Shown here: positions 1,047-56,745 of the stretch, one piece after another
Numbering within the stretch: the stretch's first letter is position 1
Layout of the letters: every line of letters begins with the position of its first letter
Assembly: GCF_006345805.1 (NCBI RefSeq)
Contig: NC_043004.1
Coordinates: 35,340,001-35,404,000, forward strand
Length of the DNA stretch: 64,000 bases
Direction: 5' to 3'
DNA from: Octopus sinensis
Taxonomy: Eukaryota
The notes under the pieces: model-generated
What the model saw: only the letters and a program-made list of their open reading frames with translations
Told to the model about the DNA's origin: nothing
The model's database searches: none
Translations under genes and position numbers: made by a program

Positions 1047-1634
1047 AGGTCACTTTAAATAAAAACCTTTGACTCTGCAACACTGTATATAAATTCTCTA
1101 CAGGGAATGACCAATTTTAAAAATCTGCTGTATCTCACACATAAGGGAATCTTACATTACTTATAAACTCTATATTTGGATGGACTCATTTTAATCTCTG
1201 TTGGACTTTTGGACTTTACTCATAGGATATTGGAATATTGCATATATACCATTATGCCTAAAAGATGGATTTACAACTTCAATACCCATACATATCTTGC
1301 ATCTATTTTCTTTCCTCCACCTCACTCTCTATTTTGTATCACATCGAAACTAACTATGACTTAGCTTTCCTCTCACACCGTCTCCAATGAAGGGATATTA
1401 TTAATATCCTAGAAACAGCTGTAAGACCTTCTATCTATAAATGCTCTAATATCTACACAGCCTTGGTTTTTTTATCTTATTATGCAAAAAATTATTATAT
1501 ACACACACTGACATAGAACCAACGTTGAACCCTTTATTCGCAATAATACCGAATTTGGAACTTAACTATGGTCTGTCTATAGCACTTATTCAGCATTACC
1601 TGACACCTTTGGGTCTCAATGACACCATTATCTC
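1047..1634 (+). mobile_element. Hammerhead-bearing non-coding retroelement, family H3 (PLE pLTR/retrozyme-like)
   Basis: The 3' 230 bp is nearly identical to 33598-33830. It contains a hammerhead motif at 1380-1427 and is flanked by TA/TACA repeats. The left boundary is approximate. Confidence 0.65.
1380..1427 (+). ncRNA. Type I hammerhead ribozyme motif with degenerate core
   Basis: gtct-CCAATGA-ag-ggatatt-att-aatatcc-ta-GAAA-CAGCTG-TA-agac. Helix I is gtct/agac, helix II has 7-8 bp, helix III is the palindrome ACAGCTGT, and the site is GUA. The CUGAUGA box has two substitutions. Confidence 0.65.
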
Positions 1635-3936: not shown

Positions 3937-5042
3937 CGAAAGGGATGACGGTATTCTAAGTGACTTCTTACAAGGCATTTATAAAATGAGATTAATATCT
4001 CTCAAACGATTGATGTAAAGATTTTTAGAATCCAACCATGCATCCATTTGCTTTATTTCCTATCTTCAAAGTTATTTGATTCTTTGAGATGTATAACATG
4101 GAAAATAGATTGCAAGTAACCAAGTGACACATAACTCAAGTTTAGCATCTCCTGTGCAGCTACTGCCACTGGCAAACACACCCATATCATGGTAAAGCTT
4201 GTAACTATACTAGAATGAAACTATATTTTAAATCAATTGCATGCTTCTTTGGTTTTTTTTCCTTGTTTTTGTTTTTTTTTTAACAAGAGATACACGTGCA
4301 TGAAAGTCCAAGGCAAACGGAAAGAGTTTGGTCAGAAATTCATTTTGATATGTGATATCCAGATTATGAAAATCCACTGACATCTTTCAAAAGCATGGAG
4401 AGTGCTTGTTATTGTGCAGTGGAATGGAAAAACAAAGAGTATATTTAGGATAGAGTAAGGCTGTTTGAAAAGGCACAACATCGAATTAAACAGGAAATGT
4501 TCAGTAGAAACTTATACACATACATCATATATGTGTGAACATATATATATATATATATATTATATAAAAGGGTTTAGTAAAATAAATTACTTTGCCGCAT
4601 ACTGAACTCGTTAGAAATAGCAGCTAAAAAAAACTATTTCTAACACTTAAAGAAAACCTCTATTTCTAACGAGTTCAGTATGCGGCAAAGTAATTTATTT
4701 TACTAAGCCCTTTTATATAATGTAATAATTTGAATTTGCCTTAAATGGTCCCTTTGCATACTGAATACTTGGTGAAATTGATTAATTAATTAATTAATTT
4801 TACCCTCAATTGTTGAAATTATAATTCATCTCTCTCTACTTAATTGTCTTGGATTTTACCGAAAAAAAGCGTAGTGTTTGCTGATTTTAACCCACGCTGG
4901 TGGAAAGGGGAGAACAGAAATTTTTCTCTTGCATATTTGAGTTAGCTAGCACTGTTAGTTGGGAACAGATCTTCAGAAGCGATAACAAGCCGAAATGGTA
5001 TGCTCCCATTTTCAGTGTTTTCAAACTCAAACAAGGGCATTC

Positions 5043-5094
5043 TGAGCTGATGAGAGAAGGGTCGAATTTGGCTAATCTTGAACGTACGTACTCA
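5043..5094 (+). ncRNA. Type I hammerhead ribozyme, H1 copy 1 (GAAA box one A short)
   Basis: tgag-CTGATGA-gaga...tctt-GAA-CGTACG-TA-ctca. Identical to copy 2 except for one homopolymer A. Confidence 0.75.
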
Positions 5095-5590
5095 AATAAC
5101 CTTGCATTTGATTTTTTAATGTCTCTACCCTCATACTTTCTTGGGTTGAATTGAGCAAGCACTATATGAGAGAGGTTTTCTTTAAGTGTTAGAAATAGTT
5201 TTTTTAGCTGCTATTTCTAACGAGTTCAGTATGCGGCAAAGTAATTTATTTTACTAAGCCCTTTTATATAATGTAATAATTTGAATTTGCCTTAAATGGT
5301 CCTTTGCATACTGAATACTTGGTGAAATTGATTAATTAATTAATTAATTTTACCCTCAATTGTTGAAATTATAATTCATCTCTCTCTACTTAATTGTCTT
5401 GGATTTTACCGAAAAAAAGCGTAGTGTTGCTGATTTTAACCCACGCTGGTGGAAAGGGGAGAACAGAAATTTTTCTCTTGCATATTTGAGTTAGCTAGCA
5501 CTGTTAGTTGGAACAGATCTTCAGAAGCGATAACAAGCCGAAAGGGTATGCTCCCATTTTCAGTGTTTTCAAACTCAAACAAGGGCATTC

Positions 5591-5643
5591 TGAGCTGATG
5601 AGAGAAGGGTCGAATTTGGCTAATCTTGAAACGTACGTACTCA
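5591..5643 (+). ncRNA. Type I hammerhead ribozyme, H1 copy 2, intact
   Basis: tgag-CTGATGA-gaga(agggtcgaatttggctaa)tctt-GAAA-CGTACG-TA-ctca. Helix I is tgag/ctca (extendable att/aat and caaggg/cctttg), helix III is the perfect palindrome ACGTACGT, and predicted cleavage is after A5639. Confidence 0.9.
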
Positions 5644-5976
5644 AATAACCTTTGCATTTGATTTTTTAATGTCTCTACCCTCATACTTTCTTGGGTGAAT
5701 TGAGCAAGCACTATATGAGAGAGGTTTTCTTTAAGTGTTAGAAATAGTTTTTTTAGCTGCTATTTCTAACGAGTTCAGTATGCGGCAAAGTAATTTATTT
5801 TACTAAGCCCTTTTATATAATGTAATAATTTGAATTTGCCTTAAATGGTCCCTTTGCATACTGAATACTTGGTGAAATTGATTAATTAATTAATTAATTT
5901 TACCCTCAATTGTTGAAATTATATATATATATATGTATGTATGTATGTATGTATTTATGTATGTATGTATATATGC

Positions 5977-6026
<50 letters not shown>

Positions 6027-6182
6027 TGGCAGGGCTGGCCTGCTAGGTAGCCGGCCAGAATGCTAGAAATAGATCATCAACGATCAAACTACAAGGGAAA
6101 TTCTCTAGAGGAAGAATTCAGCGAACACCAGAACCAAATTTGGCGGGCAGGACATATGAAAACTTAAATAAAAAACAGACTT

Positions 6183-6260
6183 AAATGCATACCTCGGTTT
6201 CGGTCTTAACAAAAGAATTACTTGCATAATTCAAGTGTCCGTGACTTCTTCAGTACATTC
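6183..6260 (-). ncRNA. Type I hammerhead ribozyme, H2 copy 1
   Basis: Reverse complement of the motif at 7542-7619. Confidence 0.8.
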
Positions 6261-6728
6261 GGTCCTCGAGATGCAAACCGCAAGACTAACCCCAGCTCTC
6301 TGTGTCAAGACAGACACGTGCTTAGTCTTACTGATTACATCGGGAATAAAATTTCAAATGTCTTGGTTCCGGCGCGCTAAGAGACTCCTGAAGCGAAGGG
6401 CTGCAGTGAATAATTCACTGCGGGTAAAGCTTACTACTAGGGAACGTATTTATTTAAATATTTAAAAATTGAGGGAGATAAATTAATATTAATTTTAATA
6501 TCAATTTAAAACCAGTAGTCCAGCATTCAAAAAATCTGAGGAGTCAGAGAAAATTCAAATATATGTGTATATTGGCAGGGCTGGCCTGCTAGGTAGCCGG
6601 CCAGAATGCTAGAAATAGATCATCAACGATCAAACTACAAGGGAAATTCTCTAGAGGAAGAATTCAGCGAACACCAGAACCAAATTTGGCGGGCAGGACA
6701 TATGAAAAATTAAATAAAAAACAGACTT

Positions 6729-6806
6729 AAATGCATACCTCGGTTTCGGTCTTAACAAAAGAATTACTTGCATAATTCAAGTGTCCGTGACTTCTTCAGT
6801 ACATTC
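6729..6806 (-). ncRNA. Type I hammerhead ribozyme, H2 copy 2
   Basis: Reverse complement of the motif at 7542-7619. Confidence 0.8.
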
Positions 6807-7541
6807 GGTCCTCGAGATGCAAACTGAAAGACTAACCCCAGCTCTCTGTGTCAAGACAGACACGTGCTTAGTCTTACTGATTACATCGGGAATAAAATTT
6901 CAAATGTCTTGGTTCCGGCGCGCTAAGAGACTCCTGAAGCGAAGGGCTGCAGTGAATAATTCACTGCGGGTAAAGCTTACTACTAGGGAACGTATTTATT
7001 TAAATATTTAAAAATTGAGGGAGATAAATTAATATTAATTTTAATATCAATTTAAAACCAGTAGTCCAGCATTCAAAAAATCTGAGGAGTCAGAGAAAAT
7101 TCAAATATATGTGTATATTTGGTTCTGGTGTTCGCTGAATTCTTCCTCTAGAGAATTTCCCTTGTAGTTTGATCGTTGATGATCTATTTCTAGCATTCTG
7201 GCCGGCTACCTAGCAGGCCAGCCCTGCCAATATACACATATATTTGAATTTTCTCTGACTCCTCAGATTTTTTGAATGCTGGACTACTGGTTTTAAATTG
7301 ATATTAAAATTAATATTAATTTATCTCCCTCAATTTTTAAATATTTAAATAAATACGTTCCCTAGTAGTAAGCTTTACCCGCAGTGAATTATTCACTGCA
7401 GCCCTTCGCTTCAGGAGTCTCTTAGCGCGCCGGAACCAAGACATTTGAAATTTTATTCCCGATGTAATCAGTAAGACTAAGCACGTGTCTGTCTTGACAC
7501 AGAGAGCTGGGGTTAGTCTTGCGGTTTGCATCTCGAGGACC

Positions 7542-7619
7542 GAATGTACTGAAGAAGTCACGGACACTTGAATTATGCAAGTAATTCTTTTGTTAAGACC
7601 GAAACCGAGGTATGCATTT
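7542..7619 (+). ncRNA. Type I hammerhead ribozyme, H2 copy 3
   Basis: gaatgta-CTGAAGA-agtc(acgga..gaattat-GCAA-gtaattc..tttgt)gacc-GAAA-CCGAGG-TA-tgcattt. Helix I has 7 bp, helix II is long and capped by a GNRA loop, helix III is the near-palindrome ACCGAGGT, and predicted cleavage is after A7612. Confidence 0.82.
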
Positions 7620-8087
7620 AAGTCTGTTTTTTATTTAATTTTTCATATGTCCTGCCCGCCAAATTTGGTTCTGGTGTTCGCTGAATTCTTCCTCTAGAGA
7701 ATTTCCCTTGTAGTTTGATCGTTGATGATCTATTTCTAGCATTCTGGCCGGCTACCTAGCAGGCCAGCCCTGCCAATATACACATATATTTGAATTTTCT
7801 CTGACTCCTCAGATTTTTTGAATGCTGGACTACTGGTTTTAAATTGATATTAAAATTAATATTAATTTATCTCCCTCAATTTTTAAATATTTAAATAAAT
7901 ACGTTCCCTAGTAGTAAGCTTTACCCGCAGTGAATTATTCACTGCAGCCCTTCGCTTCAGGAGTCTCTTAGCGCGCCGGAACCAAGACATTTGAAATTTT
8001 ATTCCCGATGTAATCAGTAAGACTAAGCACGTGTCTGTCTTGACACAGAGAGCTGGGGTTAGTCTTGCGGTTTGCATCTCGAGGACC

Positions 8088-8165
8088 GAATGTACTGAAG
8101 AAGTCACGGACACTTGAATTATGCAAGTAATTCTTTTGTTAAGACCGAAACCGAGGTATGCATTT
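8088..8165 (+). ncRNA. Type I hammerhead ribozyme, H2 copy 4
   Basis: Identical to 7542-7619, 546 bp downstream. Predicted cleavage is after A8158. Confidence 0.82.
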
Positions 8166-8424
8166 AAGTCTGTTTTTTATTTAATTTTTCATATGTCCTG
8201 CCCGCCAAATTTGGTTCTGGTGTTCGCTGAATTCTTCCTCTAGAGAATTTCCCTTGTAGTTTGATCGTTGATGATCTATTTCTAGCATTCTGGCCGGCTA
8301 CCTAGCAGGCCAGCCCTGCCAATATACACATATATTTGAATTTTCTCTGACTCCTCAGATTTTTTGAATGCTGGACTACTGGTTTTAAATTGATATTAAA
8401 ATTAATATTAATTTATCTCCCTCA

Positions 8425-8462
<38 letters not shown>

Positions 8463-12885: not shown

Positions 12886-13020
12886 GATAGATCGTTAGCT
12901 ACTACACACATTTTTTTTCTCTCATTGTTTTTTCTGTGTCCCTTTCTGTAGAAGAGCATAGGCTCGCAACGTAAAAGCCTTTTTCTATTCCTGAGCGTTA
13001 TACTAATACATTTGTTTGTG
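12886..13020 (+). mobile_element. Minimal-hammerhead short element, family H4 (degenerate copy)
   Basis: cttt-CTGTAGAA-gagc-atag-gctc-GCAAC-GTA-aaag at 12942-12977. Homologous to 13587-13870, 20970-21135 and 42035-42230. Confidence 0.65.
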
Positions 13021-13261: not shown

Positions 13262-13583
13262 CAAATTAAAGAAGTGGAATGGGTGAAATCCAGGCTGCAT
13301 AGGTTTCTTAGCCGAGCCTCTGGAATGGGAGCCCAACAGATCTAATCATCAGGGGCCAAGAATACCTTCATTACATGAAGGCTGCATTGTTGCTTCAACT
13401 CACATCGACAGTGAGTTAACTCGGAATTCCAAGCAACAATGTAACCTTCATATAATTAGGGCATTTTCAACCTGACGATTTGCTCAACTGAGCACGTCTC
13501 ATGGAGTAATTGTTATATCAAAGGATCAGCTAGCTAAGAGACATTTGTAGCCTGGATTTTACCCATTCCACTCCCTCAATTTG
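13262..13583. mobile_element. Rod-like foldback of two diverged head-to-head hammerhead elements, family H5
   Basis: Arms pair along almost the whole 322 bp. Minus arm reads CTGATGA-ttag...ctaa-GAAAC-CTAT-GCA and plus arm reads CTGACGA-tttg...ctaa-GAGAC-ATTT-GTA. It ends in CTCCCTCAATTTG. Confidence 0.65.
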
Positions 13584-13586
13584 CAC

Positions 13587-13870
13587 TAGCCGCTACACAC
13601 ATTTTTTTCTCTCCTTGTTTTTTTCTGTGTCCCTTTCTGTCGAAGAGCGTAGGCTCGAAATATAAAAGACTTTTTCTATTCCTGAGCGTTATACTAATAC
13701 ATCTGTTTGTTTTGTACACCACCTGTCTTTGTGGAGCATTATACTAATACAGATGTATTAGTATAATGCTCAGGAATAGAAAGTCTTTTACGTTTCAAGC
13801 CTACGCTCTTCTACAGAAAGGGACACAGAAAACAAGGAGAAAAAAAAATGTATGTAGTGGCTAACGATCG
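13587..13870. mobile_element. Family H4 inverted pair
   Basis: Plus copy 13587-13730 and minus copy about 13748-13870. The junction forms the hairpin gagcattatactaataca-ga-tgtattagtataatgctc. Confidence 0.8.
13785..13820 (-). ncRNA. Minimal hammerhead-like motif with variant core CUGUAGA-A
   Basis: cttt-CTGTAGAA-gagc-gtag-gctt-GAAAC-GT-A-aaag. Helix I is cttt/aaag, helix II has 4 bp, helix III is the palindrome ACGT, and the site is GUA. Confidence 0.6.
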
Positions 13871-20971: not shown

Positions 20972-21135
20972 TCTCTTATTTTATTCTCTGTTCATTTCCT
21001 CATGTTCCTTTCTGTTGAAGAGTGTAGACTCCAGACGTAAAAGACTTTCTCACCTTCCTGAGTGTCAGACTAATACACCTGTTTGTTGTTTATACACCTG
21101 ACTTTGCCTTTTGTTTTTCTGTAAATTTCAACTAT
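20970..21135 (+). mobile_element. Family H4-related element in (TA)n
   Basis: cttt-CTGTTGAA-gagt-gtag-actc-CAGAC-GTA-aaag at 21008-21043. Helix II shows a compensatory C-G to T-A change. Confidence 0.65.
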
Positions 21136-28731: not shown

Positions 28732-30169
28732 CATTGTAACCATACTTATAACTATTTCAAGGGTTCTCATGAAAATCTTTGGATATTATCTGTGTCACTC
28801 CATCTCATAGCTTACTCTAAAGGAATCCCTTTCAAATGCCTGCATTAGTTTCAATAAATACTCTGCTTGGTTGGTGCCTTTACCATTAATATTACAAATA
28901 ATAAAAGTAAAAATCCTAAGTATTTTCCCATAAAACTCATCAACCATTTCACATAGATGCACACACAAATTAAGACGTACATGCTTTTACATACGATGAC
29001 AAAGATAGATAAAACATTTCATAAAAGCAACAGCAATCATGAGAGTGTCTCTCAAGAAATGTCTATTTATTTATGTTCTACCATTATCCAACATATATAC
29101 TGAAATCCATAGTTCTAAACCTTTATAACTAGAATTTCTATAAGATTTACCGATTTTATTTATATGATTATTATCTCAACAGATAAAATGTGTATTTTAT
29201 GGAGAAATTCATTGGAATCTTTTAAAGAAAATTATCCAAGTTCATTCTCATTCCATTTATCAATCGTCATTGCTGTTTGATGCAATTAAATTATATGGTT
29301 GTCACAAGTTAAGAGCCATTTCACAATCATAAACCAAAATTCAGCTGGAAGATATTTGTTAAAATGGCAGCAGTTTGATAGTAACTAAATACAGCCTTGA
29401 TAGATTTGATCTTTACACACAGTTCTGCTATACTTCCCCTTTAGCACTATACCAATTACTGAAATATATTACTCATCCACTATACAATTCACATGTTTCC
29501 AGTTCTCAGAGGTATACAAAATTAAAAAAATTTTCAATATGTGTGTGTGTATGTATATATATATATATATATATACATACACACACACATATATTGAAAA
29601 ATTTTATATATATATATATATATATCTGTAGTATAATATGTGACAATCATTCGGTTATCCGAGATGCCAGAGCAGATTTCTGCCCCAACATCCAAAACTC
29701 GGAATTTATTATGGCAACCAATAGAATTGTCACATATTATATTACAGATAAATTCCTCTACTTGCATAATATCGAGGTCTCATTCTTTCTTTTGTTATCA
29801 TACTATAACTATTCATAATATATATATATATATACACACACACATACACACTCATATGTATTTAATTGATATAGTCTGGTTAATAAACTCATAGTGTGAA
29901 TTTGAAAGGTCCTATATGGTCATTGGCTACCATATGCCTTTCTGCAGCAGGATATTTTGGGAGTTCCACATGCCTATATAAATATTAATACCACCATCAT
30001 CATCGTCATCATCATTTTTTTAACATATTTTCGTCATGCTGGTATGAATTGGACAGTTTGACAGGAATTGGCCTGTTGGAGAGCTGGCCAGGCAGCATTT
30101 GTGTTGTCTAGTGCTGGATGTCCACCACTTTACAGAGTGTACTGAGCACTTGTACAAGGCACCAGAAGT

Positions 30170-32544: not shown

Positions 32545-33502
32545 TGTATATTCGTGGATGCTTCTAGTGAGAGATTCCAGTAAACCAACCAAGTCTGCAG
32601 CAATATAGTTTACATATCTGAGTGACTTTATTCCCGTTATTCCCTCATGGCACCAGTTCTTGGTTATTACTTGACACCCTGACACATAATTTGAACTAAT
32701 ACCTTTTAAGAATTGATCCAATTCCCAAAAGCGATAATGAAGTAAATACATAAATGGTATGCATTCATTTTCCTATACTGCTATGAGTGGTAGACATCTG
32801 CAGTTTTAATTTAATATATATATATATATACATACATATATATACACATACACACACACATGTCGATGTGCTTTATTGTTATGGGGTGGGTGATATATTT
32901 TTAGTAAATCAATTCATTTTTCCACAATTGATTCTCATATGAGACATTTTATCTCACTTATTTACTTTTACCTTCAATTTTCAATCACCGTCCATGAACT
33001 GGAGAGGAATTGGCTTCTTCAAGAGACATGTCTTCCTTAACACAATGCATAAAGATGGAAGTGGGCCATTAACTTATTGTGCTGTCCTAAGGAACACAAT
33101 ATATTTCCTGTTGTAGAACACACTTCCAGCAGCTGACTTGTTATTGTCCCAGCGAGTTAAGTCTGTAACCTAGTTTTGCTGTTTTTTATCAGTTAAAAAC
33201 ATTTCATTTCAATTATGTGATTAATGTCTTTGAAACAGGTAAAAATGTTACAATTTCTCCCCTCCTTAAATATTCAGGCTTCTTAATTCATTTTAATGGT
33301 TGAAACACTTTATCTCTTCCACATTGCTCTAAATCAATATATTTACAGACTTAATTTTACCACCCACCAAGACAGCCAACAAGATAATCACTTACACAAA
33401 TATCATTGCAGTTCTAGTCAAGCTAATTTGTGGCACAGATACACAGAAATGAATGCCTAGAGGTGATGAAAAATCTCTATATTATTAGTTCTCATAATCT
33501 TA

Positions 33503-33845
33503 TGCATAACGAGATAAAAAAAAACCAAGGCTGTATAGTTATTAGAGCATTTATAGAGAGAAGGTCTTACAGCTGTTTCTAGAATATTATCATTAATTAA
33601 TATTCTAGAAACAGCTGTAAGACCTTCTATCTATAAATGCTCTAATATGTATACAGCCTTGGTTTTTTTTTATCTCATTACACAAAAAATTCATATATAC
33701 ACACGCTGACATAGAACCAACATTGAACCCTTTATTCACAATATTACCGAATCTGGAACTTAACTATGGTCTGTCTATAGCACTTATTCAGCATTACCTG
33801 ACACCGTTGGGTCTCAATGACACAATTATCTCTTATAACCTCAAC
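33503..33845 (+). mobile_element. Family H3 5'-truncated, 5'-inverted copy with a 14-bp target-site duplication
   Basis: About 80-bp inverted arms centred near 33593. It keeps GAAACAGCTGTAAGAC. TTCTCATAATCTTA is duplicated at 33489-33502 and 33846-33859. Confidence 0.85.
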
Positions 33846-36199: not shown

Positions 36200-36900
36200 A
36201 AGGCAGCATCCTGGCAGAAACGTTAGCATGCTGGGCAAAATGCTTAGCAGTATTTCGTCTGTCTTTACATTCTGAGTTCAAATTCCACCAAGGTCGACTT
36301 TGCCTTTCGTCCCTTTGGGATTGATGAATTGAGTACCAGTTGCATACTGGGGTTGATCTAATCGACTGAGCCCCTCCCCAAAACTTTCAGGCCTTGTACC
36401 TAGAGTAGAGAATAATTGTTAGCATGCCAGGCAAAATTATTAGCAACATTTTGTCTGTCTTTACATTCTGAATTTAACTTCCACCAAGGTTGACTTTGCC
36501 TTTCAGTCTATCAGGGTCGATAAAAGAAGTACCATTTAAGCACTGGGGTTGATGAAATCAACTTATCCACTGCAGCGAAATTGCTGGCCTTGTGCCTAAA
36601 TTTTAAACCAATATGTATGCTCACAAATTAATGCAAATAAAGAAAGCTACCTCATTAGATTACCAGAACATCATATCAGGACCATATATTATTCTTTTCT
36701 ACTCTAGGCACAAGGCCCGAAACTTTTGGGGAGGGAACCAGTCGAATAGATCGACCTCAGTACACAACTGGTACTCAATTTATCAACTCCAAAAGGAGGA
36801 AAGGCAAAATCAACCTTGGTGGAATTTGAACTCAGAACGTAAACACAGACAAAATACCAATAAGCATTTTTCCTGGTGAGCTCATGTCTCTGCCAGTTCA
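36200..36900. mobile_element. Cluster of three SINE family F copies (36200-36415 +, 36417-36610 +, 36690-36900 -)
   Basis: Each has the TTCTGAGTTCAAATTCC..GTCGACTTTGCCTTTC core or a decayed version of it. Confidence 0.82.
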
Positions 36901-42034: not shown

Positions 42035-42230
42035 GGGAGAGTTTACTATGAAGAAAACAAAAGATGAAGACAGGTGGTGTACAAGACAAACAGATGTATT
42101 AGTATAACACTCAGGAATTGAAAAAGTCTTTTACATTTCGAGCCTACGCTCTTCTACAGAAAGTGACACAGAAAAAACAAGGAGGGAAACAAGGAGGGAA
42201 AAAAATGTGTGTAGTGGCTACCGATCTATC
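42035..42230 (-). mobile_element. Family H4 element, 3' end in (TA)n
   Basis: Minus strand cttt-CTGTAGAA-gagc-gtag-gctc-GAAAT-GTA-aaag at 42128-42163. It ends ...AAACTCTCCC-TATATA. Confidence 0.75.
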
Positions 42231-43184: not shown

Positions 43185-43922
43185 ATCACAGCCATGGCCA
43201 ATGCCAGTTTTGCATGTCTGGCCCATTTAAGAGTACCCTTGATGCGTCAGGGGATATGATATGCTTGAGAAGACCTGTTAAGTCAAGTAAAACCAAAATC
43301 GTAGCTGTGGCCAGTGCCCCCTGATTGGCTCCCGTGCCAGTGACATGTAAAAAGCACCATCTGAACATGGTCGATGCCAGTATTCCCTGACTAGCTCCCA
43401 TGCCAGTGGCTCATAATAAGCACCATTCAAACGTGGCCAATGCCTGTGCCCCCCCGACTGGCTCCCGTTCCAGTGGCATGTAAAAAGCACTATCTGAACA
43501 TGATTGATGCCAGGCTCGCCTGACTAGCTCCCATGCTGGTGGCATGTAAAAAGTACCACTCAGGCATGGCCAATGCCAGTGCCCTCTGACTGGCTCTTGT
43601 GCCAGTGGCACATAAAAAGCACTATCCAAACGGGATCAGTGCCAGGCCCGCCTGACAGGCTCCCATATCCGTGACACATAAAAAACACTATCTGAACATG
43701 ATTGATGCCAGGACCACCTGACTGGCTCTTGTGCCAGTGGCACATAAAAAGACCCACTACATTCTCAGAGTGGTTGGCATTAGGAAGTGCATTCAGCTGT
43801 AGAAACATTACCAGATCAGATTGGAGCCTGGTGCAGCTGCTGGCTCTCCAGACATCAGTCAAACCATCCAACCCATGCCAGCATGGAAAACAGACGTTAA
43901 ATGATGATGATGACGACGATGA
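43185..43922 (+). mobile_element. Family E element with an expanded internal minisatellite of about 60 bp
   Basis: About 7-8 diverged units (tgccag...gactggctccc.tgccagtggcacataaaaagcac), then the RTE-type tail and (GAT)n. Confidence 0.88.
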
Positions 43923-55645: not shown

Positions 55646-56190
55646 ATCATCATCATCATCGTTTAACGTCCGCTTTCCATGCTAGCATGGGTTGGACGGT
55701 TCACTTTGGGTCTGGCAAGCCCGAAGGCTGCACCAGGCCAGTCAGATCTGGCAGTGTTTCTACAGCTGGATGCCCTTCCTAACGCCAACCACTCCGAGAG
55801 TGTAGTGGGTGATTTTATGTGCCACCGACACAGGTGCCAGACGAGGCTGGCAGACGGCCACGCTCGGATGGTGTTTTTTATGTGCCACCGACACAGGTGC
55901 CAGACGAGGCTGGCAGACGGCCACGCTCGGATGGTGTTTTCTTATGTGCCACCGACACAGGTGCCAGACGAGGCTGGCGAACGGCCACGCTCGGATGGTG
56001 TTTGTTACGTGCCCTCAGCACGGAGGCCAGTCGATGCGGTACTGGCTACGGTCACGTTCGGATGGTTTTCTTATGTGCCACCGGCACTGGTACCACAAGG
56101 ATACATATTCCATTCATGTTCATCTATTTTGATTTGGTTTGATTTGATTTGATTTGATTTTCACTTGCCTCAACAGGTCTTCACAAGTGT
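55646..56190 (-). mobile_element. Young family E element with internal repeats of about 62 bp (x3 near-identical)
   Basis: (CAT)n and RTE-type tail on the minus strand; CpG-rich unit tatgtgccaccgacacaggtgccagacgaggctggc repeated. Confidence 0.9.
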
Positions 56191-56489: not shown

Positions 56490-56745
56490 TCCCATAGGCA
56501 TATAGTTTAATGGTTAAGAGTGTGGGCTACTAACCCCAAAATTCCAAGTTCAATTCCAGGTAGTGCCTTGAATAAATAATAATAATAATAATACTAGTAA
56601 CATCAGCAAAAAATATCTTAGGGCTGGGTTAAAAATTCCACCAGGACACCTGATGAAGGTGCCAGAGTAAATCAGGCAAAACATTATGGTAACAACATAC
56701 ATGATGAGGACACATATACATCCAATGTAAATAATGAACATAATA
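56490..56745 (+). mobile_element. Element with tRNA-like segment, (AAT)n and a degenerate hammerhead-like motif
   Basis: GGCATATAGTTTAATGGTTAAGAG...AGTTCAATTCC, then (AAT)n, then acac-CTGATGA-aggtgcc...ggc-AAAAC. An inverted partner lies at 55560-55647. Confidence 0.55.

Follow-up and report, generated by a model that had tools for sequence, protein, structure and literature searches.

Our results indicate, with good confidence, that the motifs of five families (H1 to H5) are type I hammerheads with a short self-complementary helix III, that they lie in non-coding repeats likely mobilised by Penelope-like elements (PLEs), that they likely cleave mainly as double hammerheads, and that their tandem layout likely derives from reverse transcription and not from a requirement for dimers. 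The motifs had been described in an earlier note on the window (the whole 64,000-nt stretch of DNA analysed here, on contig C8 of the 2.72-Gb Octopus sinensis genome, in a microsatellite-rich setting), and all five were recovered there at the places which that note implied.

Five hammerhead families in the window and the genome

An Rfam scan of the window at E values up to 1 returned no hammerhead and only low-complexity microRNA and snoRNA matches. Therefore, we applied a purpose-made descriptor, which scores helices I and II, the core, and A15.1/U16.1 only and is blind to helix III. The motifs of the window and the insertions that contain them are collected in Table 1. The motif at 5591-5643 is a complete type I hammerhead, composed in order of helix I TGAG, the core CTGATGA from 5595, helix II, GAA, ACGTACGT, A, and CTCA, while the H5 copies of the window carry GAG or GCA in place of GAA. 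Decayed copies of two more hammerhead-bearing families, outside the list of the earlier note, are located at 29661-29731 and 56635-56704, and short tandem repeats of 66, 63, and 196 nt derived from common interspersed repeats occupy positions 43310-43751, 55813-56095, and 36222-36598, respectively.

Table 1. Hammerhead motifs and hammerhead-bearing insertions of the window
Feature	Positions	Strand	Details
H1 type I hammerhead, intact	5591..5643	+	core 5595-5601, GAA 5628-5630, palindrome ACGTACGT 5631-5638, A17 5639, 4-bp helix I
H1 hammerhead, tandem copy 548 nt upstream	5043..5094	+	GAAA without one A
H1 insertion in (TA)n	4556..5923	.	short minus arm to unit position 185; plus arm of ~2.3 units to unit position 283 (from cut site)
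H2 insertion in (TA)n	6013..8447	.	546-nt units in head-to-head arms; ends at unit positions 177 (minus arm) and 289 (plus arm)
H2 hammerhead	6183..6260	-	core CTGAAGA, helix III ACCGAGGT, 7-bp helix I
H2 hammerhead, tandem copy	6729..6806	-	
H2 hammerhead	7542..7619	+	
H2 hammerhead, tandem copy	8088..8165	+	
H3 hammerhead, single decayed copy	1380..1427	+	core CCAATGA (family majority CCGATGA); helix III ACAGCTGT 1415-1422
H3 3' fragments, head-to-head pair	33500..33833	.	ACAGCTGT kept in both; 5' core half lost at junction (pair 33569/33611 without core)
H4 minimal hammerhead, decayed	12942..12977	+	GCA replaces GAA
H4 minimal hammerhead	13633..13668	+	helix III is ATAT
H4 minimal hammerhead, best copy in window	13785..13820	-	core CTGTAGA, extra A, helix II, GAA ACGT A
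H4 copy, also decayed	21004..21058	+	
H4 copy	42113..42174	-	helix III ATGT
H5 hammerhead, decayed, one arm of head-to-head pair	13290..13356	-	ACCTATGC
H5 hammerhead, decayed, other arm of same head-to-head pair	13468..13553	+	GAG, ACATTTGT

Genome-wide family patterns with an unconstrained helix III, which gave 0 control matches for H1, H2, H3, and H5, confirmed that the palindromes belong to the family consensus sequences. ACGTACGT followed by A was found in 99 of the first 100 of 415 pattern matches of H1, ACCGAGGT followed by A in 98 of the first 100 of 261 matches of H2, and ACAGCTGT followed by A in 83 of the first 100 of 1315 matches of H3 (counted by hand). For H4, ACGT was present in 46/55 hits of the H4 cluster, which includes a related family. 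The H5 consensus implied in the earlier note, ACATATGT, proved right, being found in 49 of the first 100 of 262 pattern matches (hand count) and in 18/30 loci by script; a DNA search with the window copy had returned just 2 matches due to the decay of that copy, and it was the pattern search that recovered the family. Since copies of young repeats agree by descent, all of these counts give the majority sequence of a family and are not evidence of selection. It should be noted that ACCGAGGT of H2 is complementary at 6/8 positions, with a GA/AG mismatch at its centre.

The H1, H2, and H5 majorities agree with the type I core (C3-U4-G5-A6-N7-G8-A9, G12-A13-A14, A15.1-U16.1, and H17). The H3 core, CCGANGA in 18/20 hits, is non-canonical (U4C), as is that of the H4 cluster, CTGTNGA in 47/55 hits (A6U). 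The H3 and H4 families (window 1384 and 13816) are also very abundant, with the majority cores CCGAUGA and CUGUNGA. Helices I and II comprise 4+4 bp in H1, 7+3 in H2, 4+8 in H3, and 4+4 in H4, with open ends in helix I, and helix I of H5 has only ~3 bp. In the usual hammerhead, G10.1-C11.1 sits directly on the core at the base of helix II; in H2, H3, H5, and several other families, an unpaired nucleotide is present on each side at this place. The core variants of H3 and H4 would be expected to lower activity while leaving the resemblance to a type I hammerhead unaffected. Low activity of A6C and U4C hammerheads is described in PMC3088659, and by analogy the majority cores of H3 (U4C) and H4 (A6U) should be weaker in catalysis; no report on a hammerhead A6U variant was found in the literature searched. 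Most H3 and H4 copies have core changes, and several of the window copies are decayed. The GUA triplet attributed to the best copy of each family is not constant, with GUA, GUU, and GUC all occurring in H4, GUC in a sister family of H1, and mostly GUU in the H1 relatives of four public runs (at the place of 5639, in assembled contigs). Relatives of both H1 and H2 are present in assembled contigs of public runs, and one H2 relative (5 contigs, one public run) has a 9-nt palindrome around a central base. Within families, no compensatory change was seen, and the deviations in the H5 and H3 listings resemble single neutral substitutions. Two of the 100 listed H5 copies do have other palindromes, which double hits could account for.

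The palindromic centre and the predicted double-hammerhead fold

The outer pairs of helix III are required of any hammerhead. As these pairs are obligatory, the decisive test lies in the inner pairs, which are unable to form within one molecule. In the 19 families with ≥2 loci, 33/36 inner pairs were Watson-Crick, compared to a mean of 9.2 and a maximum of 21 in 20,000 shuffles. Over all 52 clusters, false hits included, the figure was 67/87 versus 22.3 by shuffle; clusters share descent, so the inner-pair figure should not be read as a p-value. Helix III varies in length from 4 to 16 nt across the clusters. The descriptor itself gave 41 hits versus 2 in the same DNA reversed for 100 stretches of 10 kb at round coordinates (999,800 bases), and 421 hits versus 5 for all 322 loci (1.81 Mb, partly targeted and overlapping), which fell into the 52 clusters. 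That the palindromes arise by chance or as a descriptor artefact in AT-rich repeats is hardly credible in light of these numbers. It is true that the outer two pairs are forced in any helix III, that the families are related by descent and hence non-independent, and that some single descriptor hits are false. However, the 41 versus 2 descriptor hits, the 0 control matches in four pattern searches, and an inner-pair test that excludes the forced outer pair all oppose this explanation, and a chance origin was ruled out by the first and last of these, apart from the reservation about shared descent. The earlier note had claimed that the sequences differ between families while self-complementarity is kept, which is borne out by the inner pairs of the 19 families and holds less well for H2. 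The sole homologous comparison of differing helix III sequences is that of H1 with its sister family, which has 66% identity to H1 over 554 columns and a different helix III, ACAGGCTTGT, self-complementary with G-U pairs, in 14/17 copies. In the families of L141, L219, L127, L186, and L142, helix III measures 10-16 nt, so that a monomer stem is possible, and the self-complementary centre is nonetheless kept.

In all five families, helix III is too short for a monomer and has a self-complementary centre, that of H2 including the central mismatch. The computed energies of the helix III duplex were -9.8, -6.6, -11.1, -1.7, and -7.0 kcal/mol for H1 to H5, respectively, whereas the helix III hairpin came to +1.8 to +2.4 kcal/mol and was impossible for H4. 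In the unconstrained ensemble of natural H1 tandems, the dimer helix III had a probability of 0.46-0.57 in 5/5 pairs from 2 arrays; the corresponding values were 0.65-0.97 for crossed helix I, 0.00 for self helix I, and just 0.1-0.2 for helix II. When the inner four letters of H1 were permuted in silico, the dimer helix was lost in 16/16 non-palindromes and kept in 3/7 other palindromes. For natural H2 tandems, the dimer probability was 0.01 or less in 4/4 pairs. Under constraint, the H1 dimer was 3.6 and its monomers 15.7 kcal/mol above the free ensemble; the corresponding values for H2 were 7.0 and 11.0 kcal/mol, the dimer being 4 kcal/mol better. A single pair of the sister family had helix III paired at 1.0 and crossed helix I at 0.13 and 0.0. 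Circular monomers (single MFE each) had the cut-site helix I engaged elsewhere in H1 and gave a mixed result in H2. All of these values come from equilibrium modelling that leaves out Mg2+, tertiary contacts, and proteins; it predicts that H1 tandem RNA folds as a double hammerhead and that H2 tandem RNA does not. Thus, the dimer-type reading of the earlier note is favoured by the sequence statistics, by the folding of H1, and by published precedent, while H2 is the part of it that folding does not predict.

A competing reading is that the motifs of 8-12 nt cleave adequately as monomers through a 2-4-bp stem together with tertiary contacts or protein help, the palindromic loop being a relic or an aid to RNA pairing, such as the co-packaging of two RNAs on a dimeric reverse transcriptase (RT). 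We regard this as rather doubtful. In its favour, single-motif cleavage is known from retrozymes of invertebrates (PMC7229834), the hammerhead of the anole PLE requires the PLE protein, a predicted dimer (PMC11167929), the palindromic centre is retained where a helix III of 10-16 nt allows a monomer stem, and folding does not predict the H2 dimer. However, folding helix III as a hairpin costs energy in the 8-mers and cannot occur with ACGT, at least 9 different inner palindromes would be unexpected of a relic, and dimer cleavage has been demonstrated for related motifs (PMC4209133, PMC7229834). Cleavage mainly as double hammerheads is the reading that we consider likely.

Tandem arrays and their fixed ends

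H1 and H2 are arranged in head-to-tail non-coding units of about 550 nt (546-552), each with one type I hammerhead, no long ORF, and a GC content under 45%; the arms of two H1 arrays reach 20 and 24 full units. Among 30 loci per family, examined for 1.5 kb on each side, same-strand tandems were present in 30/30 for H1 (few independent arrays), 18/30 for H2, 5/30 for H4, and 0/30 for both H3 and H5. The H3, H4, and H5 copies are dispersed short 3' pieces, mostly single or in head-to-head pairs, which stop at (TA)n just past the motif, and many H2 insertions have one motif per strand. By their layout, H1 and H2 are non-LTR retrozyme arrays; H3 and H5 showed no tandem units in the loci examined.

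A key feature of the H1 and H2 insertions is that their RNA-sense 3' ends, counted from the cut site, are fixed at two internal positions and followed by (TA)n. Of the ends listed, which contain repeats from overlapping loci, 26/27 in H1 were at 185 or 283, 45/46 in H2 at 177 or 289, and 20/33 in the sister family at 207 or 294. Two-armed insertions had one short and one long end in 6/6 cases for H1 and 10/11 for H2 (distinct insertions with both outer ends visible, counted by hand, with the three-armed locus L037 excluded); the short end of the eleventh H2 insertion lies 24 nt earlier. In the sister family, which is older, the exact short/long pair was found in 4 of ~10 insertions and the same end twice in none. 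The pattern was seen at window 4556-5923 and 6013-8447 and at L013-L017, L027-L029, L032-L059, and L269-L272, all in (TA)n, whereas the junctions between arms vary. The tail between the two ends measures 87-112 nt (~100; 98-112 in H1 and H2). When the H1 and H2 units are compared on the same strand, this tail is the only homologous region (65% over 107 nt, E 6e-6). A microsatellite target, 5' truncation with an inverted arm, and two fixed 3' ends are thus common to both families and the sister family. These are PLE-type insertion marks, as the ends of H1 and H2 match the behaviour of a PLE protein described in PMC11167929 and the tail described in PMC8557442. The arrays accordingly have the look of having been written by a Penelope-type RT.

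Private substitutions are often common to all units and both arms of one insertion (C7, L016, L030, L047, L195, and L032), while variants are mixed within the insertions C2, L014, and L037. Such a bottleneck of a single unit followed by re-multimerisation fits with the proposal in PMC7229834 that a circle is copied in rolling-circle mode, although the shared variants may alternatively stem from a linear multimer transcribed from a homogeneous source array, from later expansion, or from polishing errors between near-identical copies. In the C7 array (L269-L270), one variant recurs at roughly four-unit spacing, and in the H2 arrays L049 and L058 variants alternate every second unit; multimeric templates, later block duplication, and polishing artefacts are the alternatives that we offer for these.

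Two other accounts of the tandem layout have to be weighed against reverse transcription. After insertion, one or two units could have been expanded into arrays through unequal crossover and gene conversion, like ordinary satellites, a model discussed in a preprint by Li, Clavereau and Pollet (2026; bioRxiv 10.64898/2026.07.22.740005). The variant that returns about every four units in C7 and the heterogeneity of the C2 array would agree with this, and such growth may account for part of the longest arrays. Yet insertion-specific variants are common to both opposed arms, even in arrays of 1-3 units, and the arms run across the cut site and stop at fixed internal sites in (TA)n, which makes growth of this kind an improbable general explanation. 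The second account is the causal one given in the earlier note, namely that cleavage gated to dimers is the selective reason for the tandem layout. H1 is predicted to adopt the dimer fold only with a palindrome, the youngest families with near-identical copies (H1 and H2) are the tandem ones, selection would favour source loci with two motifs, and the idea has been voiced in PMC6765202. On the other hand, H3 and H5 retain the palindrome and show no tandem in 30 loci each, release of a unit needs two cut sites for monomeric and dimeric ribozymes alike, the monomer-competent retrozymes of coral and mussel are also tandem (PMC7229834), and many H2 insertions have a single motif per strand. We consider this account unlikely. 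The insertion signatures point to reverse transcription, and gating is not supported as the explanation of the tandems; the palindrome signature is more likely a consequence than a cause of the tandem layout.

For H1 and H2, reverse transcription could operate in the following cycle. An array would be transcribed by read-through, and the palindromes of two neighbouring motifs would join as one 8-bp helix III with swapped helix I partners, such that each core cuts the site of the other motif. The unit-length RNA freed in this way would likely be circularised by a host ligase. A PLE RT-endonuclease would then nick both (TA)n strands and prime at the two internal sites flanking the ~100-nt tail, with the cDNA passing the cut site for one to >20 units and the two arms being joined head to head. 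The dimer requirement would come at no cost, as only multimers can release a unit, and the monomeric circle would be protected from self-cutting. Against our main reading stand the H2 tandems, which are not predicted as dimers, the low crossed helix I of the sister family, the H3 and H4 core variants, and the absence of an autonomous partner among the loci searched, as well as two published results, namely in vitro insertion that was unaffected by hammerhead mutants (PMC11167929) and the lack of cleavage in 8/9 retrozyme dimers (2026 preprint). It is further conceivable, although we would stop short of calling it probable, that each array is written in one event, in which a dimeric Penelope-type RT takes an RNA circle made by the ribozyme as template, primes on it from both strands of the target, with one subunit per side of the conserved ~100-nt tail, and copies its way round the circle as many as 20 times or more. 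The palindrome, retained even where a monomer stem is possible, would protect the circle from being cut and may tether two RNAs to each other. If true, the sequences would be direct evidence for the rolling-circle cycle proposed for retrozymes and PLEs, and they would define a portable recognition signal of ~100 nt, together with a strict rule of one site per arm for PLE priming.

Relation to known elements and to the PLEs of the genome

Metazoan type I or minimal hammerheads of Penelope-like elements are reportedly the subject of Lunse et al. (RNA Biol 14:1499), and the double hammerheads of avocado sunblotch viroid and newt satellite 2 are said to go back to Forster et al. 1988. The palindrome, dimer cleavage, and multimer gating are all already in print (PMC4209133, PMC3088659, PMC6765202). 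A short palindromic helix III, a dimer fold, family covariation, and cleavage that is allowed in multimers and avoided in monomeric circles are described by Cervera and de la Pena (2014, PMC4209133), where dimer cleavage is low but real. Palindromes of this kind are listed in the legend of Fig. S8 of PMC3088659, and PMC6765202 and PMC6466107 suggest that a tandem layout may help dimers form. The axolotl hammerhead is dimer-dependent, whereas those of coral and mussel retrozymes cleave as single motifs (PMC7229834), and in the 2026 preprint 1/9 retrozyme dimers cleaved and 8/9 did not. Thus, the observation itself repeats published work and adds families from another animal. The two-end rule, with fixed ends around a shared tail and one end per arm, is the freshest part; no papers on the H1-H5 families or on the tails of retrozyme arrays were found in a search that was thin on subscription papers and preprint supplements.

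Compared with the metazoan PLE hammerheads of PMC4209133, the present motifs are similar in their short or absent helix III with a palindromic centre, the dimer fold (predicted here for H1), and family-specific sequences, in the U3-A8 covariant core (in the PLEs of this genome), and in the mostly solitary truncated copies, and H4 further shares the extra nucleotide after A9 and the G10.1-C11.1 pair. They differ in H1-H3 and H5, which combine a helix III of 8 nt with a helix II that is long or interrupted, in the H3 and H4 cores (CCGAUGA and CUGUNGA), and in that none of the five was tied to an RT ORF. With the non-LTR retrozymes (Cervera and de la Pena 2020, PMC7229834; 2026 preprint), the arrays share tandem non-coding units with one type I hammerhead each, a GC content of 34-39%, sizes from dimers to >20-mers, and co-existence with PLEs, all seen here at the level of DNA. 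The units of 546-563 nt exceed the 170-400 nt given in PMC7229834 and lie within the 51-972 nt of the preprint, which links retrozymes to PLE termini and discusses local amplification; PLE-type array ends such as those seen here are unreported in the accessible portions of these two papers.

Several features are shared with PLE insertions (Craig et al. 2021, PMC8557442; Frangieh et al. 2024, PMC11167929): tandems that are partial, an inverted arm with 5' truncation, targets of AT-rich or (TA)n sequence, two internal sites at which the RT starts, and a tail that is often one-ended. According to PMC11167929, AT-rich DNA is cut and extended on both strands by the PLE protein, which starts at two internal positions of the RNA, one on either side of the tail, and hammerhead mutants were without effect on insertion in vitro; the PLE tail of PMC8557442 is 30-40 bp long and often on one end only. 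In contrast, the tail found here is 87-112 nt, is homologous between H1 and H2, and belongs to non-coding arrays, and complete H1 and H2 insertions never had the same end on both arms. With avocado sunblotch viroid and newt satellite 2 (PMC4209133, PMC6466107), the motifs have in common a two-base-pair helix III and a palindromic loop, which fuse to a single helix in multimers, although cleavage was measured there and the motifs here are known from sequence. H1 and H2 bear on the tandem and inverted insertion of PLEs and on the mobilisation of retrozymes via RNA circles (PMC8557442, PMC7229834, 2026 preprint). Both families are young, with near-identical copies, two fixed priming sites, and a common tail, and could serve directly as substrates in the in vitro PLE system described in PMC11167929 and in a comparison of monomer and dimer cleavage.

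The genome does hold PLEs, with 147 GIY-YIG matches scored. ORFs of ~780 aa combine RVT_1 with a C-terminal GIY-YIG domain; both domains were found in 2/4 proteins scanned, and RVT_1 was just below the cut-off in one. PLE ORF homology near H1 to H5 copies was detected by tblastn in 0, 1, 0, 2, and 0 of 30 loci, respectively, in 6/100 random larger loci, and nowhere in the window, using queries from two PLE protein lineages only and copies that are 5'-truncated. Likewise, the window ORFs had no match to the PLE proteins of the genome, and blastn of the retrozyme unit against PLEs gave no clear tail match in the PLE 3' ends examined. In these searches, none of H1-H5 was linked as a family to the 3' end of an RT + GIY-YIG ORF, whereas other hammerhead families of the genome were: in 5/16 loci, a hammerhead with ACATGT or AGTACT is located 500-620 nt downstream of such an ORF. 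The loci L253-L268 represent young PLE families with intact RT + GIY-YIG ORFs of ~780 aa that are 90-99% alike, and two of these loci (L257 and L261) have an additional upstream ORF of 479 aa with no Pfam match.
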